Positions 1,575-11,621 of a DNA stretch of 11,921 nucleotides are shown here, piece after piece. A model generated the notes under the pieces. It was not told where the DNA came from, did no database searches, and saw nothing but the letters and a program-made list of their open reading frames with translations. Positions within the stretch are counted from its first letter, which is position 1; each line of letters begins with the position of its first letter. Position numbers and translations under genes: made by a program. The stretch covers positions 1 through 11,921 of IMG/VR virus record IMGVR_UViG_2606217106_000005, one strand, 5' to 3'. Origin of the DNA: a virus (taxonomy: Duplodnaviria > Heunggongvirae > Uroviricota > Caudoviricetes).

Positions 1575-4046
1575 TTAAAAATCAGCCTGACTCGGGATCA
1601 GTTTTTGCCAGATAACTGAAACGTATTTTGCCTGGTAACGGGCGTCATCAAGTGCATTATGGCGCTCACCTTCGAATGGAATAGCCGTTCTGGCATCGAA
1701 GTCTATGGCTTTCCCCAGCTCAACGATTGTGCGTACATCGCGATCGTTGTAGTAACGCCACGGGCAGGGGATCCCCTGCCGTTCGTATGAACGGCGCAAA
1801 ATCGTGTTGTCGAAGTTGGCTCCATTTCCCCAGACCTGAACAAAAAATTCACCGGAGTTTTCGTCGATAAATTCCCGCAATTGTAACAGTGCATCATCTA
1901 ACGGGATTTCATCGGTCATAATGGCAGATTGCGCTTCGCGTGATTGCTTAAGCCACCATTTAATGGTGTCCCGATCAATGACTCCGCCAGCAGTTTCCAG
2001 ATCGATAGTCTTACTAAATTCCGGTCCCATATCTCCGGTTTGCGGATCGAAAAATATTGCACCTATTGAGATGATCGGGGCATCAGGATTTTTTCCCATG
2101 GTTTCAAGGTCGATCATTAGATGGTCACACGTCCTGCTGGTGGATGTGATTTCTTGATGACCGTTCACCTTAATTGAGTGATCTGCCGTCTCGCCAGTTT
2201 CATTATCGCTATCGTGATGCTGATTGCCGCCAGTGTTCTCTTTGTGTGGATGTTCAGCGCCTTCCATTTCCTCCGGATCATCTTCCTGAACTTCAACCTG
2301 ATACTCTTCATCGAATGTTTCCTGGTATGTTGCGTCGCCCATCACCGCGCCACAATCAGGGCAGTTGCCGCCGCCGGTCTGACCGCAGGCGGTGCAGATC
2401 TTTTCCGGTTCCTGTTGCACTACTGGTTCAGGTTGTTTCGTTTCTGGCTCGTTTTGTTGCGTACTTGGGCTGTTTTGTTCCGCTTTCTGGTCGTTCTGTT
2501 CCGTTTCTTGCTGGTTCTGGTTCACAGAATCGCGGGTCTGGATCCCATTAACCCATTTCGGATCATTCGGGTCGCTAATCCCTTCAACAAATTCACCACG
2601 TGATACTGCAAGCAGTTCATCGGCGTCAGGCTGGCTGATATTGGCTGCCTGCATAATTTTGTTTACTTCGTCAGCGGTAACTTTTACTGACCCTGGTTGT
2701 GCGGTCGTGTCAGATGCACCAGTATTTTGTTGTGAACCTGAGTATGTACCGTTTTTGCGGGCGAAATATTCTTCTTTCGTGATTTCAGTAGCCCCAGCAG
2801 ACAGCGCCTTATCCAGACCAGAAAGTTTGTTTGCGCGACCGTATTTTTCGCCATCCTTGTCGGTGAAGAGGAAGTAGAACGGCCCCTCACGTTCTACAGA
2901 TGGTTCGACTTCCACTTTGCATTCGGTTTTTTCGTTGTCTGGAATTGCCGTTTCCACTGCATCAGTTTCTGGTACTGGCGACGAGAGAGTATCAGTTGCG
3001 CTCTGATTTGTTCCTTCATCTTCAAACACGCCCTTTGTAGTCAGGTATTCAGTAATGTATTTGTTCAGTGCCACAGGGTCTTTGTGAATGTCGATCGGAC
3101 GTTCACGGACAAGGCCAAAAATAGTCTGGCGGTCGTAGCGAAGGGCATCAGGCTGTTTGCGCATTGATGCCGAGATACGCTTCCAGTCTTCGCGGTCGTT
3201 GTCGATAACTTCATTTTTTGCCCAGCGATGGATGCTGCCGTCAATGTTTCCGGCATCCACATCACCAGGCCAGAGAGCGTAGGCCAGTTCGTCATCCAGT
3301 GTTTTCCATGTCTGCTTGTATTCGCGATGAATGGCAGCAATGACCGGGCTGATTTTTCCTGTTGAATTTTCAGTGTGCTGTTGATTGGTTCTGGCGCGGG
3401 CGAGATCAACAACAGACGTGTATTTTCCGGTTTCCTTGCGTTCACCTTCGCGACGTTTTTTCCAGATGCGCATCTCTGCCTGAATTTCGGGCCATTTGGC
3501 ACCAGGCTTACATTTATGCTTAACGCACCCGATGGCATGCAGCTTAAGCTCCGGATACATGGCGTTAACTTCTGGCATTTTCATCAACGCTTCAACGATA
3601 TGTCCGTCGAATGTTGCCATGTCTTCCTGCAACAATTCCTGTGCGTTAATAACCATATCAACGGTGATGTTTTCACATGTGTCGAACTTAACCATGAGAG
3701 CGTTCTGTACTTCAGGGGCCAGCTTGTCAAAAGTGACGTTCATCAGATCGGATTCAGTCTCAACCGGGACAAAAGAAGCAGAATCCTCATCCCAGCGGTT
3801 TTCCTGCATATATTCAGCATCCCATGAATCGAGGGCAGGGCGGGGTATGCCAGGTTTATCCTCGCAGATAATAAATTTATAAGCGCAGTCCTGAGCAGCC
3901 GGATAATGTTCCAGGAACTGCCAGTGAAATTTTGCTCGAGCACGGCGTTCGTCGCCAGCTTCAATGGCTGTGGCTACAGCCACAGCGCCTTCTTCCCTTG
4001 TTGCCAGTTCGTCAGGAATGGCGGCGCAAATAAAGACTTTACTCAT
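1575..4046 (-). CDS. Large phage exonuclease with C-terminal DEDDh (DnaQ-like) 3'-5' exonuclease domain, Cys4 zinc ribbon and acidic low-complexity linker
   Basis: 823-aa ORF with GAGG SD. C-terminal motifs MIDLETMG (Exo I, D-x-E), GNGANFDNTIL (Exo II), HNALDDARYQ (Exo III, H...D) are visible. CTACGQTGGGNCPDCG is a C-x2-C-x8-C-x2-C ribbon. Sits where lambdoid phages carry exo/recombination genes; I recall similar proteins annotated exodeoxyribonuclease VIII-like, but cannot verify. Confidence 0.8.
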   Translation of the reverse strand: MSKVFICAAIPDELATREEGAVAVATAIEAGDERRARAKFHWQFLEHYPAAQDCAYKFIICEDKPGIPRPALDSWDAEYMQENRWDEDSASFVPVETESDLMNVTFDKLAPEVQNALMVKFDTCENITVDMVINAQELLQEDMATFDGHIVEALMKMPEVNAMYPELKLHAIGCVKHKCKPGAKWPEIQAEMRIWKKRREGERKETGKYTSVVDLARARTNQQHTENSTGKISPVIAAIHREYKQTWKTLDDELAYALWPGDVDAGNIDGSIHRWAKNEVIDNDREDWKRISASMRKQPDALRYDRQTIFGLVRERPIDIHKDPVALNKYITEYLTTKGVFEDEGTNQSATDTLSSPVPETDAVETAIPDNEKTECKVEVEPSVEREGPFYFLFTDKDGEKYGRANKLSGLDKALSAGATEITKEEYFARKNGTYSGSQQNTGASDTTAQPGSVKVTADEVNKIMQAANISQPDADELLAVSRGEFVEGISDPNDPKWVNGIQTRDSVNQNQQETEQNDQKAEQNSPSTQQNEPETKQPEPVVQQEPEKICTACGQTGGGNCPDCGAVMGDATYQETFDEEYQVEVQEDDPEEMEGAEHPHKENTGGNQHHDSDNETGETADHSIKVNGHQEITSTSRTCDHLMIDLETMGKNPDAPIISIGAIFFDPQTGDMGPEFSKTIDLETAGGVIDRDTIKWWLKQSREAQSAIMTDEIPLDDALLQLREFIDENSGEFFVQVWGNGANFDNTILRRSYERQGIPCPWRYYNDRDVRTIVELGKAIDFDARTAIPFEGERHNALDDARYQAKYVSVIWQKLIPSQADF

Positions 4047-4516: not shown

Positions 4517-5005
4517 TATCGCGCCCTCAACAATGAGTTTTGTGATGCGGTGCCTGGTGCCTCCAGGTGACGTTAACCAGTTAACAATTAACGCCGGATA
4601 CAGAGAATCCAACCATAACACTGTTTTTGGTTTTAACTGTTCCGCGTGCGCTTAGCCGCATTCACCGCATCACAAAATTCACTTTAAAAAGGGCGGCAGA
4701 GCAGTCACGGAGTAAAACTGATACCGCCAAACGTCACCAGAAAATTGATAACAGAGGGCGTTGCAGCGGGGTTGTCACTTAAGCGTATGGTCAACCTGAC
4801 AACCCGGTGTCCTCAACGGGGGAAGGAATACCCCCGCCATACTTACCGCCGCGCCATTTCGCGGATTGCCACAACCAGAAGCGCACGGTCGAAGAAATTT
4901 AACGACAAGACTTATATGCAAAGGGATCTCGCCGTGCGCTTTCGTGTTATGCCCTGACTTTTCAGGGTAAATTAACCTGTGGAAACCTGTTTTTACTGGC
5001 GCTAA

Positions 5006-5245: not shown

Positions 5246-5339
5246 ACGCCTCGGGCTGGCTACTTAATCCCTGACCACTGCCGGGTAACTCTAGGTATTG
5301 CCCTGTATTGTGTGGGACGGGATGGGTTGGTATGGGAAA

Positions 5340-5408
5340 ACTATAGGAAATGCCTAATTGCTTGTCAATAGGCTATGCCTAATGATTTGGGTGCGACCTA
5401 ATAGGTGA
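5340..5408 (-). promoter_or_regulatory. P_L-like early-left promoter with three operator sites (O_L)
   Basis: Minus-strand TTGACA (plus coords 5363-5368), 17-bp spacer, TATAGT (plus coords 5340-5345). Operator-like sites TAGG-N5-CCTA (5343-5355), TAGGC-tat-GCCTA (5369-5381) and CCTAATAGG (5397-5405), centres about 26 bp apart. Confidence 0.6.
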
Positions 5409-5476
5409 TGGTTTGTGGGAGAGGTAGTAGGAGTTAACTAACGGGAACTAGGAATTTCCCGTCGGACCATATAAGT

Positions 5477-5953
5477 TTAAGTTCCTGTCTTGGTGATGTT
5501 CTGGCTTTTCCGTTTTGATTCTTGATTTTTCAGATAGTTAGCTACCTTCATTTCCATTGCGGCAATGTAGGCGCGAACGTCATGATCAACCCAACTAGGC
5601 TCCGTAGCATTTCCAGATAAGAGGAAAGCCACAATTGCTCTTTTTTCATCAGAGGCGGCTTGATAAAGGCTGTTTATGTCTAAAAGTTCACTTTTTGTAT
5701 CTGAAGTGGATGGGGTTGGTATGGGGTATTCGTTAAGCCCCCAATGCTCTGGACCAACCACATCAGAAAAGAAACGCCATAGTTCTGGAAGTTTGTCTTT
5801 ACTTATCGAACCTTTCTTAATCCAGTCATGGATTGATGGTGGTTGGACTTTGAAATGACGTGCGATTTCCGCCTTTGATTTGACGGCTCCTGATGCAATT
5901 TTTTTGTTGATGGCCTGCTCTATCGCTCGGCCTAAGTCTTTACCACTAAGCAT
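5477..5953 (-). CDS. racR: Prophage repressor, RacR-like HTH protein
   Basis: 158-aa ORF between outward-facing promoters. HTH-like segment SKAEIARHFKVQPPSIHDWIKKGS. Length and N-terminus match my recollection of E. coli Rac prophage RacR; followed divergently by ydaS/ydaT-like genes, as in Rac. Confidence 0.8.
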   Translation of the reverse strand: MLSGKDLGRAIEQAINKKIASGAVKSKAEIARHFKVQPPSIHDWIKKGSISKDKLPELWRFFSDVVGPEHWGLNEYPIPTPSTSDTKSELLDINSLYQAASDEKRAIVAFLLSGNATEPSWVDHDVRAYIAAMEMKVANYLKNQESKRKSQNITKTGT

Positions 5954-5981
5954 TGCTTAATAGTCTCCTATGCGCATCGCG

Positions 5982-6050
5982 TTAGGCAATCCCTACTCTC
6001 GAAGCGTTAGGCATAGCCTATTGACAATCGCATTAGGCTAAGCCTAATAT
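5982..6050 (+). promoter_or_regulatory. P_R-like early-right promoter with three operator sites (O_R), including a perfect 17-bp palindrome
   Basis: TTGACA at 6021-6026, 18-bp spacer, TAATAT at 6045-6050. Perfect palindrome ATTAGGCTAAGCCTAAT at 6032-6048 overlaps spacer and -10; TTAGGC-ata-GCCTA at 6007-6020; TTAGGC half-site at 5982-5987. Confidence 0.65.
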
Positions 6051-6077
6051 TATTGTGTGTTTTTTGGAGTTCATTCG

Positions 6078-6401
6078 ATGAAAAAAGATAACTATTCATT
6101 CAAACGAGCTTGTGCTGTTGTCGGTGGGCAATCAGCAATGGCTAGGCTTTTAGGTGTATCTCCTCCAAGCGTAAATCAATGGATCAAAGGTGTACGTCAG
6201 TTGCCTGCTGAGAGATGTCCTGCGATTGAACGAGCAACAAAAGGTGGTGTCCTGTGTGAAGAACTTCGTCCTGATGTTGATTGGACATACTTACGACGCT
6301 CGTCATGTTATTCGCAGAATATGTCGATGAAGCAACCAAATGACGAAAACGATCATACCCGAAGCATCAAGAGGCAAATGATTCATGAAAATCAAACATG
6401 A
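6078..6401 (+). CDS. ydaS: Cro-like HTH protein, YdaS-like
   Basis: ATG at 6078 preceded by GGAG (6066-6069). Motif GGQSAMARLLGVSPPSVNQWIKGVRQLPAERCPAIERAT is typical of YdaS/Cro-like proteins. First gene after P_R. Confidence 0.8.
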   Translation: MKKDNYSFKRACAVVGGQSAMARLLGVSPPSVNQWIKGVRQLPAERCPAIERATKGGVLCEELRPDVDWTYLRRSSCYSQNMSMKQPNDENDHTRSIKRQMIHENQT

Positions 6402-6810
6402 GCACATCCGCATGGCGATGAATGCCTGGGCATATCCTGATGGTGAGAAAGTTCCAGCAGCTGGAATAACCCAGGCTTATTTTGAGTTGGGTATGACGTT
6501 CCCAGAACTGTATGACGACAGCCATCCGGAAGCCCTGGCTCGCAATACCCAGAAAATTTTCCGCTGGGTAGAGAAAGACACCCCTGATGCAGTTGAAAAA
6601 ATTCAGGCGTTGTTACCAGCGATCGAAAAGGCAATGCCACCTTTGCTGGTGGCCAGAATGCGCAGCCACAGTTCAGCTTATTTTCGGGAGCTGGTGGAGA
6701 CGCGGGAACGACTGGTGAGAGACGCTGATGATTTTGTCGCAGTGGCGATCGCTGGTTTCAACCAGATGAATCGTGGTGGCCCTGCAGGAAATATTGTGGC
6801 TGTGCATTGA
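6385..6810 (+). CDS. ydaT: YdaT-like protein, putative toxic partner of YdaS
   Basis: 141-aa ORF overlapping the ydaS stop by 17 bp; GAGG SD; same position and size as Rac prophage ydaT. Confidence 0.7.
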   Translation: MKIKHEHIRMAMNAWAYPDGEKVPAAGITQAYFELGMTFPELYDDSHPEALARNTQKIFRWVEKDTPDAVEKIQALLPAIEKAMPPLLVARMRSHSSAYFRELVETRERLVRDADDFVAVAIAGFNQMNRGGPAGNIVAVH

Positions 6811-9272: not shown

Positions 9273-9851
9273 ATGAGAGACATTGATGTAAGAAAGGCTG
9301 TGCATGCCAAGATTCTGAGAGATCATCATAAAGATCCTGACACCCTAATCATTGATGAGTTTACGATGAATCTAGGGGCTAGCAGAGCTGATATAGCAGT
9401 GATCAATGGGCTTATACATGGTTATGAGTTGAAGAGCAAGAGTGATAACTTGCTCAGATTACCAGCGCAGGTGCAACATTACTCATCAGTGATGGATAAA
9501 GTAACTTTGGTTGTCTCTGATTGCCATCTTTATGATGCTTTAAGCATAGTTCCATCATGGTGGGGGATAAAGCAAGTTACGCAAGGTGCACGGCAAGGTA
9601 TCCATTTAAAAACAATTCGAACTAGCAAGTTGAATCCACAAGTGGACAAACTTTCCTTAACAATGCTTCTTTGGAAAGATGAATTGCTTTCCCTATTAAG
9701 TGATGTAGGGGAGCTACAGAATTTGAAAAATAAACCTAAACGCGTCTTATGGTCAAAACTCGCCAATAGTATGGATGTTGGCGAGCTTCGTGAAGCTGTT
9801 CGAGTTAAACTTAAAGCCCGTAAAGAGTGGCGAGTTGCTCAACAACCTTAG
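9273..9851 (+). CDS. PD-(D/E)XK-type nuclease-fold protein (192 aa), sce7726-like by recollection
   Basis: Motif arrangement IIDEF (E29) ... RADIAVING (D40) ... GYELKSK (E52-x-K54) matches the restriction-endonuclease-like core. Putative extended -10 (TGaTATAGA, 9225-9233) upstream. Confidence 0.7.
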   Translation: MRDIDVRKAVHAKILRDHHKDPDTLIIDEFTMNLGASRADIAVINGLIHGYELKSKSDNLLRLPAQVQHYSSVMDKVTLVVSDCHLYDALSIVPSWWGIKQVTQGARQGIHLKTIRTSKLNPQVDKLSLTMLLWKDELLSLLSDVGELQNLKNKPKRVLWSKLANSMDVGELREAVRVKLKARKEWRVAQQP

Positions 9852-10908
9852 TTATGTGATGGTTTTGCCCAATCCTACGCCATACCTCTGGGCTACCAAA
9901 TTTATAGTTACCAGAGGGATTGGCTTTGTAGGCTTGATACTCGTTTGCATAATATTCTATGTCTCTATCTCCCGCACAGAATGTAGGCCCTGAATATTCT
10001 CGATGAGCAAGAATATCCTCACTATGTTTACCATATTGTTCATAACCAAAGCGATTAGCTACTCTTCCTCGAAATACCCAAAAGTCATTATCTCCAGAGT
10101 ATCTGACGCTGGCAGATACGCTAGGGAATCGCGTCGAAAGCCTATTAAAGTCGGGGTGCTGTACTCCATAATCACTATAAATCACATTTCTGGCAAGTTC
10201 TTTTCTATTCATTAAACTCTGCCATAAAATCCACTCGATTCGAGGTTGAGAATATAGACCAACAGAAATATCACTGAGATCTGTAGGAAATGAACCCCCA
10301 GAAAGAATCACTTTTCTGTATTCATTGAGGTGCGCCAGATTGTTTATCAATCCCATTGCCAAAGTATATAGTTCGCCGGAATTAATTTTATCCTCGGTTA
10401 ACTCATCTCTTAAGTCAATAATTATATCAATATTTGATAAAGGAATTCCCAGATGATTAATGTAATGCGTTATTAATTGTGGGTTAACCAGATCTAACGT
10501 GGTTAATCTCAAGCATATTTCATTCTGCATTAATTCATCAATCGCTCTTTTATAGTTAGATGGGCGAGTTGGTGAACTGACAGGAATAACTCTTATCCCC
10601 ATATCTCTAACTTGATTAACCGCATTTATTATAGGGTAATGATCTTCAGGAGAAATAAAATGCTCTTCAATTAATAATCCATCAATATAAACACCTTGCA
10701 TATCTGAGCAAGATTTTGAGACTTTCTTTCCGAACTCTATAAGAGTCTCGTTATAACTCTTTAAGGCAATACCTGAATCAGGGTCAATTGGCACTGGTTC
10801 AATTTCGAGTAATGGCAAAATTTTTGATTTCTTTTCAATGGATAGCTGCGATAAAGCTGATAACTCAGAACGTTTCGCTTTCAGAATAGGAATATATGAA
10901 ATTGTCAT
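9811..10908 (-). CDS. Beta-protein / sce7725-like family protein (365 aa), function unknown
   Basis: Long ORF with AAGG SD 8 nt upstream of ATG. N-terminal MTISYIPILKAKRSELSAL matches my memory of the conserved start of this family. No Walker or other catalytic motifs recognised. 3' end overlaps the convergent 192-aa gene by 41 bp. Confidence 0.7.
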   Translation of the reverse strand: MTISYIPILKAKRSELSALSQLSIEKKSKILPLLEIEPVPIDPDSGIALKSYNETLIEFGKKVSKSCSDMQGVYIDGLLIEEHFISPEDHYPIINAVNQVRDMGIRVIPVSSPTRPSNYKRAIDELMQNEICLRLTTLDLVNPQLITHYINHLGIPLSNIDIIIDLRDELTEDKINSGELYTLAMGLINNLAHLNEYRKVILSGGSFPTDLSDISVGLYSQPRIEWILWQSLMNRKELARNVIYSDYGVQHPDFNRLSTRFPSVSASVRYSGDNDFWVFRGRVANRFGYEQYGKHSEDILAHREYSGPTFCAGDRDIEYYANEYQAYKANPSGNYKFGSPEVWRRIGQNHHITKVVEQLATLYGL

Positions 10909-11339
10909 GTTAATACCTTATACAGAATCAATTAACAATTAATGGTTCTTCGGACATTGAAATTTATATCGCAAAAATTGGCAAACTCTCCTCGACTACT
11001 CACTTGTGGGTATCCTGGCGTAAAAGGAATGACTTGGCAATACCCGGTGTGATCATAAGTCATTGAAAATGATCATTTTTATCAGTCTTTCTTCCATGAT
11101 GAATGCTAATGCCATTTGATTTGTTGAGGTGAAAACTGTTAAAAATCAAAACGATGTAATTGAAATGAACGTTCGGTAGCATTCACGCTTTAAATGTTTC
11201 TTTTGTGCTGATTGGATGAATTTGGGTCACTTCTGATGAGAGATGTTGCAGGAAAAGAAGTTGGCATTGATCTATTGGATAGTTAGAATTACTGCGGGTG
11301 CTTGAGGCTATCTGCCTCAGGCATGAACACCAAAAGGCA

Positions 11340-11420
11340 GATAGAGAAAAGCCCCAGTTAACATTACGCGTCCGGCAAGACGCTTAACATTAATCTGAGG
11401 CCAATTTCATGCTTTGCACA
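11340..11420 (-). ncRNA. Candidate Sok-like antisense RNA of the hok locus (approximate)
   Basis: Inferred only from the canonical hok/sok organisation (antisense RNA opposite the hok mRNA leader/mok start); no clear promoter or terminator could be pinned down by eye. Confidence 0.25.
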
Positions 11421-11465
11421 TGTAGGTTAGCCTCTTACGTGCCGAAAGGCAAGGAGAAGCAGGCT

Positions 11466-11621
11466 ATGAAGCAGCAAAAGGCGATGTTAATCGCCCTGAT
11501 CGTCATCTGTTTAACCGTCATAGTGACGGCACTGGTAACGAGGAAAGACCTCTGCGAGGTACGAATCCGAACCGGCCAGACGGAGGTCGCTGTCTTCACA
11601 GCTTACGAACCTGAGGAGTAA
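11466..11621 (+). CDS. hokD: Hok-family type I toxin (HokD/RelF-like), 51 aa
   Basis: Translation MKQQKAMLIALIVICLTVIVTALVTRKDLCEVRIRTGQTEVAVFTAYEPEE has the Hok signature (single TM helix, LTRK..LCE.R) and matches my recollection of E. coli RelF/HokD. GGAG SD; in-frame upstream ATG at 11409 gives a 70-aa mok-like extension. A 9-bp inverted repeat (11308-11316 / 11336-11344) lies in the leader. Confidence 0.85.
   Translation: MKQQKAMLIALIVICLTVIVTALVTRKDLCEVRIRTGQTEVAVFTAYEPEE

Follow-up and report, generated by a model that had tools for sequence, protein, structure and literature searches.

A perfect palindrome over the rightward early promoter of a Rac-like prophage is very probably the promoter-proximal operator of the repressor RacR

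Does the perfect palindrome that separates a repressor gene from a divergent Cro-like gene in a Rac-like prophage serve as the site at which the repressor blocks the early promoter, or does it owe its presence to chance, to an RNA hairpin or to another binding protein? The palindrome lies in an IMG/VR virus sequence of 11,921 nucleotides, analysed here over its whole length and called the window. At positions 6032-6048 the sequence ATTAGGCTAAGCCTAAT is identical to its own reverse complement, with eight arm positions paired around A6040. A preliminary description made from the letters of the DNA had reported this repeat and had placed it between a TTGACA at 6021-6026 and the start of the ydaS-like gene, over the spacer and -10 of a rightward early promoter, P_R (PydaST in K-12); both the palindrome and its location were borne out by the sequence, a promoter consensus scan and the open reading frames. 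The scan assigned the plus-strand -35 hexamer to that TTGACA, which is invariant with respect to K-12, and the -10 hexamer TAATAT to 6045-6050 on the same strand, with a spacer of 18 nt. This pair matches the consensus at 10 of 12 positions and is the sole sigma-70-like site that the scan returned in 5850-6200. The palindrome covers the spacer from 6032 to 6044 and the first four bases of the -10, so that its right half-site merges with the hexamer (gccTAATat, GCCTAATAT), and it ends 30 nt upstream of the ydaS-like ATG (6078-6080). We refer to the element, which has no strand, as O_R1; its published name is O1, and its core dyad occupies 6033-6047.

The window belongs to a Rac-like lambdoid prophage of enterohaemorrhagic E. 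coli (EHEC). Its region 5250-6450 is 99.9% identical to O103 RM8385, 99.4% to O157:H7 EC4115, where the prophage integrase gene adjoins potC, and about 87% to K-12 Rac, and the matching E. coli Rac-like prophages carry racR/ydaS/ydaT annotations. On the minus strand, racR (5477-5953) encodes a 158-aa repressor, a functional analog of CI with the recognition-helix region PPSIHDWIKKGSISKDKLPELW. This product scores 246.8 bits against the RacR equivalog model NCBIfam NF049929, for which the cut-off is 200, and is 92% identical to K-12 RacR. It carries His42 (codon in the 5830 region) where K-12 has Tyr42, within the reported recognition helix, and His is the commoner of the two residues across RacR family loci. 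The operon on the plus strand begins with the ydaS-like gene (6078-6401), whose product is a YdaS/P22_Cro-type helix-turn-helix (HTH) protein of 107 aa, 85% identical to the 98-aa K-12 YdaS, and continues with a ydaT-family gene (6385-6810), a functional analog of CII. Farther left in the window lie genes for an integrase, an excisionase and an 823-aa exonuclease, together with DUF1482 and DUF1391 genes. The YdaS/YdaT literature led us also to consider the cryptic prophage CP-933P of E. coli O157:H7 as an identity for the window. It is likewise lambdoid and comes from the same host lineage, with genes for YdaS (Cro-like) and YdaT (CII-like) located downstream of its divergent repressor. However, the CP-933P repressor is PaaR2, with its own operators, whereas the window encodes RacR and TTAGGC dyads and thus represents a different immunity type; the identity was rejected.

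A palindrome of this length is not remarkable by statistics alone, and the idea that it is was rejected. In dinucleotide-preserving shuffles, 415 of 2000 windows (about 21%; mean 0.23 per window) held a perfect 8+1+8 palindrome somewhere in the 11.9 kb, and the bare hexamer TTAGGC is without significant window-wide enrichment (7 copies against 4.5 expected). Both observations would suit a chance palindrome in an AT-rich promoter region that is functionless by itself. The significance of the palindrome comes instead from its location, its motif family and its conservation. Within the pre-specified 125-bp racR-ydaS intergenic region, a perfect 8+1+8 palindrome arose in only 4 of 2000 shuffles. 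Five sites in the window match TAGGC-N3-GCCTA with at most one mismatch, against 0.18 expected, a count that none of 200 shuffles reached, and all five fall in two clusters that flank racR. All seven copies of the hexamer likewise sit between 5352 and 6047.

Alignment with K-12 places the palindrome column for column on the operator O1 (GTTAGGCgtcGCCTAAT). Half-sites, -35 and -10 are identical between the two, which differ at the centre (taa here, gtc in K-12) and at the outermost base (A here, G in K-12). The shared layout extends to the TTGACA/TAATAT promoter with its 18-nt spacer, to the TTAGGC/GCCTAA half-sites and to the O2, O3 and start-codon sites at 25/26-bp spacing. Where the copies differ is in the extent of pairing: only two 7-nt arms pair in K-12 O1 (TTAGGCg/cGCCTAA), whereas the window copy is a perfect 17-bp palindrome. 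At 6033-6047 the window matches the published inverted repeat (T/A)TAGGC-n3-GCCTA(T/A) with zero mismatches, inside the divergent racR-ydaS intergenic region and coinciding with the ydaST promoter.

For the K-12 ortholog, binding and repression are documented in detail. Krishnamurthi and colleagues described in 2017 three variant GCCTAA/TTAGGC repeats in the 123-bp intergenic region, three RacR-DNA complexes in EMSA, a single complex on a 49-bp one-repeat fragment upstream of ydaS, ChIP enrichment of RacR at the intergenic region and repression of a reporter (PMC5700373). Wisniewska and colleagues, in 2022, mapped a single ydaS start by primer extension, with -35 TTGACA and -10 TAATAT, and abolished promoter activity by changing the latter to CCCGGG; in DNase I footprints the ydaST promoter region was protected at the lowest RacR concentration, and repression was demonstrated both by in vitro transcription and in vivo (PMC9638921). 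The same authors arrived at ATTAGGC for the site of a monomer and gave the (T/A)TAGGC-n3-GCCTA(T/A) dyads the names O1-O3, with O1 on PydaST (PMC9638921). The TTAGGC motif was reused in 2019 to locate a RacR target in phi80 (PMC6715736), and an 18-bp -35/-10 spacing of PydaST has been stated (PMC11879457). A 2023 study counted four inverted repeats and reported that RacR forms an octamer, which it ascribed to the four O_R dyads of the racR-ydaS interval; the protein combines a lambda-CI-like HTH at the N-terminus, in which residues 38-47 are given as the recognition helix, with an unrelated domain for oligomerisation at the C-terminus (PMC11014345). When RacR is lowered in K-12, ydaS/ydaT are derepressed more than 100-fold (bioRxiv 10.64898/2026.09.06.749655), and in the K-12 model loss of RacR derepresses the toxic ydaS/ydaT and drives prophage excision. 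The preliminary description had read the palindrome as a repressor operator over P_R; orthology to K-12 O1 and the RacR equivalog encoded next door uphold that reading, and its observation and mechanism are both correct and already established for the K-12 ortholog.

To define the conserved element, relatives were collected by a RacR protein search of one genome per species and of a phage collection, which returned loci with RacR at 52-92% identity from Escherichia, Mixta, Proteus, Klebsiella, Achromobacter, Nitrosomonas, Aeromonas, an unclassified Pseudomonadota MAG, Klebsiella phage KpF5 and Pseudomonas phages. Conservation of O_R1 was measured over 11 non-redundant loci with RacR down to about 58% identity, spanning Escherichia, Mixta, Proteus, Klebsiella, Achromobacter, a Nitrosomonas MAG and phage KpF5. 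In these loci each column of TAGG and of GCCTAA carries 2.0 bits and the C of TAGGC 1.6 bits, while the central three columns carry 0.7-1.1, the outer left base 1.0 and the left flank 0.3-0.5. The conserved core is accordingly the dyad TTAGGC-taa-GCCTAA at 6033-6047. Because the half-site columns are conserved while the centre and the outermost base vary, the predicted functional unit is this 15-bp dyad, TTAGGC-N3-GCCTAA, and not the 17-bp repeat; the perfection of the latter would be partly incidental, its extra inner T:A and outer A:T pairs being without visible constraint. The half-site TTAGGC that had been proposed for the repressor family therefore stands, in agreement with the published GCCTAA/TTAGGC repeats and with the conservation, and the unit to which it belongs is trimmed from 17 to 15 bp.

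The wider arrangement is conserved as well. A cassette composed of a dyad, TTGAC(A), 5-7 nt, TAGGC-nnn-GCCTA and AT(A/..)T was present at every locus from Escherichia to Nitrosomonas except that of Klebsiella sp. L010, which is without a clear TTGAC -35. In about 60 kb of sequence from related loci, a single site with no more than one mismatch falls outside two clusters that flank racR, one in the repressor-Cro intergenic region and the other a pair downstream of the repressor gene. RacR shows almost no variation across the 11 loci in the segment PPSI(H/Y)DWI(K/N)KGSISKDKLPELW, of which the reported recognition helix is part. The helix of Pseudomonas phage D14H differs, and there the sole site found with at most one mismatch is at the repressor start codon. 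With half-sites at 2.0 bits across genera while the flanks diverge, and with experimental binding data for the K-12 site, the chance reading is left with a vanishingly small probability, and we regard it as effectively refuted by the conservation data and the published K-12 footprint.

The same comparison bears on whether the palindrome works as a nucleic-acid hairpin, for instance an intrinsic terminator or an RNA stem-loop, instead of binding a protein. A consensus scan flags 6032-6048 and the following ATTATTGTGT as terminator-like, and the RNA of the palindrome folds into a 7-bp stem. The fold energy of -8 kcal/mol is nevertheless unexceptional (z = -0.86), being equalled or bettered by 42 of 200 shuffles, only three pairs of the stem are G-C, and the element lies upstream of the predicted ydaS start and therefore outside the P_R transcript. 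Relatives keep the sequence of the half-sites and not merely their pairing, with variable loop bases, and the dyad recurs at five other positions without T-tracts. An intrinsic terminator, for which a stable G+C-rich hairpin followed by a U-tract within a transcript would be expected, was rejected as a class for this element, and a hairpin function of any kind is extremely improbable.

A host factor such as OxyR could also be the principal protein at the dyad in place of RacR. Pull-down on the K-12 intergenic region recovered OxyR, and deletion of oxyR raises PydaST activity 2.5-fold, but the authors of that work did not find an OxyR site there (PMC11879457). The dyad, moreover, accompanies the phage repressor even in hosts as remote as Achromobacter and Nitrosomonas, and it is RacR that footprints the K-12 site (PMC9638921). 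We consider this explanation very unlikely.

These findings argue that the palindrome is, with high probability, the promoter-proximal operator O_R1 of RacR, at which the repressor would shut off the rightward early promoter. In the mechanism that we propose, a RacR dimer would set one HTH on each half-site of TTAGGC-N3-GCCTAA. Since this dyad takes up the space between -35 and -10 and reaches into the -10, bound RacR would sterically exclude RNA polymerase from the spacer and -10 of P_R, a strong promoter whose TAATAT resembles TATAAT, and the occlusion would keep the early operon of ydaS (Cro-like) and ydaT (CII-like), with the genes downstream of it, silent. We infer that the window allele would behave like that of K-12, also with His42 in place of Tyr42. 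Occlusion by RacR at O1 is not the only control of PydaST. Work published in 2025 lists as further controls autorepression by YdaS, a reverse promoter within ydaS, sites for YdaT, and OxyR; owing to the autorepression, the reverse promoter and OxyR, the K-12 promoter stays weak even when RacR is absent (PMC11879457).

One of these further controls bears directly on the dyad, which could mainly or additionally be an operator of the Cro-like YdaS, autoregulating P_R and competing with RacR. A Cro/P22_Cro-type HTH protein is, after all, encoded just downstream, and the K-12 papers describe RacR and YdaS as operator competitors, with a modest YdaS autorepression (to about 80% of activity) and a 16-fold rise of PydaST on inactivation of ydaS. 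Against a leading role for YdaS, the operator half-sites co-vary with the RacR recognition helix across loci, racR is not repressed by YdaS in K-12, and the K-12 Rac literature that was searched reports no YdaS footprint on the dyad. A YdaS function at the dyad is a genuine possibility that we hold tentatively, and it is compatible with O_R1 being a RacR operator.

O_R1 does not stand alone. Three direct 20-nt units, spaced 25 and 26 bp apart, carry one dyad each, at 5983-5995, 6008-6020 and 6034-6046, the dyad of the third unit being TAGGCtaaGCCTA. The middle one, O_R2 (6008-6020, TAGGCataGCCTA), has a perfect core, abuts the -35 (GCCTATTGACA) and is centred 26 bp from O_R1; O_R3 (5983-5995, TAGGCaatCCCTA) has one mismatch and is centred 25 bp from O_R2. 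A weak fourth dyad with two mismatches, O_R4 (5947-5959, TAAGCattGCTTA), has the racR start codon (5951-5953, minus strand) at its centre; at loci that are more distantly related its leader-side half is perfect (TAGGC/GCCTA), with one mismatch remaining. This start-codon site was named O3 in the 2022 paper, which likewise mentions for K-12 a lone half-site inside racR (PMC9638921); in the window such a TTAGGC lies within the racR coding sequence at 5930-5935 on the minus strand. The array of similar dyads about 25 bp apart has the same layout in 11 loci. O_R2, against the -35, probably adds cooperative help to O_R1, and O_R2, O_R3 and the weak start-codon site would act with O_R1 and probably set racR autoregulation. 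The preliminary description had taken the palindrome for the primary operator; its position and orthology support this role, with the refinement that it is one of four O_R and two O_L dyads and not a lone site. The -10 of the leaderless racR promoter PracR3 (5960-5968) reads GAGACT in the window and GAGAAT in K-12.

The two O_L dyads form a second operator-promoter cassette to the left of racR, about 690 bp from O_R. A candidate leftward promoter (P_L-like) on the minus strand at 5340-5368 consists of TTGACA (5368-5363), a 17-nt spacer and TATAGT (5345-5340), with 11 of 12 consensus matches. O_L2 (5369-5381, TAGGCtatGCCTA) has a perfect core and abuts the -35 of this promoter, while O_L1 (5344-5356, TAGGAaatGCCTA), with one mismatch, is situated in the spacer and extends into the -10. 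The two are 25 bp apart, and their layout is that of P_R, with O2 at the -35 and O1 in the spacer and -10. The cassette is conserved in K-12, Mixta, Proteus, the unclassified MAG and Klebsiella phage KpF5. By its sequence and arrangement it is a likely O_L/P_L for RacR in the style of lambda, as a lambdoid immunity region would be expected to have, and it most likely serves to repress the leftward early operon. A fall in RacR raises the leftward genes of K-12, among them ydaG, ydaF, kilR, ydaE, racC, recET, ralR and xis/int, by 40- to 70-fold or more (bioRxiv 10.64898/2026.09.06.749655), which the O_L/P_L cassette would account for. Together with the RacR octamer, O_L may, on a tentative view, support a lambda-style O_L-O_R loop that represses both early operons through an oligomerisation domain unrelated to that of CI. 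Neither a Rac O_L/P_L nor a loop is described in the RacR literature searched, the coverage of which did not extend to older subscription-journal work.

Two further elements were noted in the leftward region. About 25 bp beyond O_L2, a block at 5396-5409 (ACCTAATAGGTGAT) is conserved among the window, EC4115 and K-12 while its flanks diverge, and it contains operator-like halves in the opposite, tail-to-tail order. A third O_L site at about 5396-5407 (ACCTAATAGGT) was considered and rejected: it is conserved with respect to K-12, but the halves are reversed and do not fit the dyad. In the leftward operon, downstream of the P_L candidate, a full-length DicF sRNA lies at 4691-4742 on the minus strand (Rfam RF00039, 76.7 bits); from this position it would be RacR-controlled here, as against control by DicA in Qin.

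The resulting immunity region resembles that of lambda in its architecture. O_R (5947-6048) and O_L (5344-5381) flank racR, each over a predicted early promoter. As at lambda O_R1/O_R2/O_R3, divergent repressor and Cro-like genes are separated by several imperfect dyads about 2.4 helical turns apart, and the promoter-proximal, best-matching dyad overlaps the lytic promoter. Also shared are a second operator cluster with a leftward promoter across the repressor gene and the report of a repressor octamer. The components themselves differ. The operators are unrelated, 15-bp TTAGGC-N3-GCCTAA sites here against 17-bp sites in lambda; O_R comprises four dyads, of which one covers the start codon of the repressor; and K-12 YdaS does not repress racR. 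In lambda the distance between O_L and O_R is about 2.3 kb, and the corresponding distance here is shorter. An S24 peptidase domain, characteristic of lambda CI-type repressors, was not detected in RacR, which gave no Pfam match at all, and its C-terminal domain has been reported to adopt another fold (PMC11014345). The RacR system thus works like lambda, while RacR is not a member of the lambda CI family.

The region can therefore be confidently annotated as O_R1/P_R of an EHEC prophage with RacR immunity. The operator is real and very probably functional but ordinary, already known from K-12, and leaves current understanding unchanged. What the comparative data add is a cleaner definition of it, as a dyad of 15 bp whose 3-nt centre is free and whose right half-site is fused to the -10, and the recognition that the operator-promoter cassette is duplicated at the leftward promoter and conserved from Escherichia to Achromobacter and Nitrosomonas. 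The O_L/P_L cassette and a possible octamer-formed O_L-O_R loop are the sole modestly new leads; the duplication could guide work on long-range repression by the RacR octamer and on the control of leftward genes, the DicF sRNA included.

Several other features of the window were recorded outside the immunity region proper. At 6378-6395, spanning the end of ydaS and the ydaT start codon, ATGATTCATGAAAATCAA matches the published YdaT box TTGATT-N6-AATCAA with one mismatch. The search gave this one match in the window against about 1.4 expected by chance, so that the match is not interpretable from counts and its position alone is suggestive. The 823-aa protein encoded at 1575-4046 on the minus strand, in the recombination-gene position, has at its C-terminus an Rv2179c-like domain of the 3'-5' exonuclease type (226.6 bits); this place is taken by recE (and recT) in K-12 Rac, and the EC4115 counterpart is a truncated pseudogene. 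A convergent, non-lambdoid pair of genes with overlapping 3' ends occupies 9273-10908 and encodes a 365-aa Beta_protein (PF14350, 178 bits) on the minus strand and, on the plus strand, a 192-aa protein with zero Pfam matches; the pair resembles a moron and is possibly a defence cassette. Finally, a hok/sok-type toxin-antitoxin locus lies at 11296-11621, with an Rfam sok match at 11296-11471 (119.8 bits) and a HokD-like open reading frame ending at 11621, and hokD is annotated at the corresponding position in EC4115.
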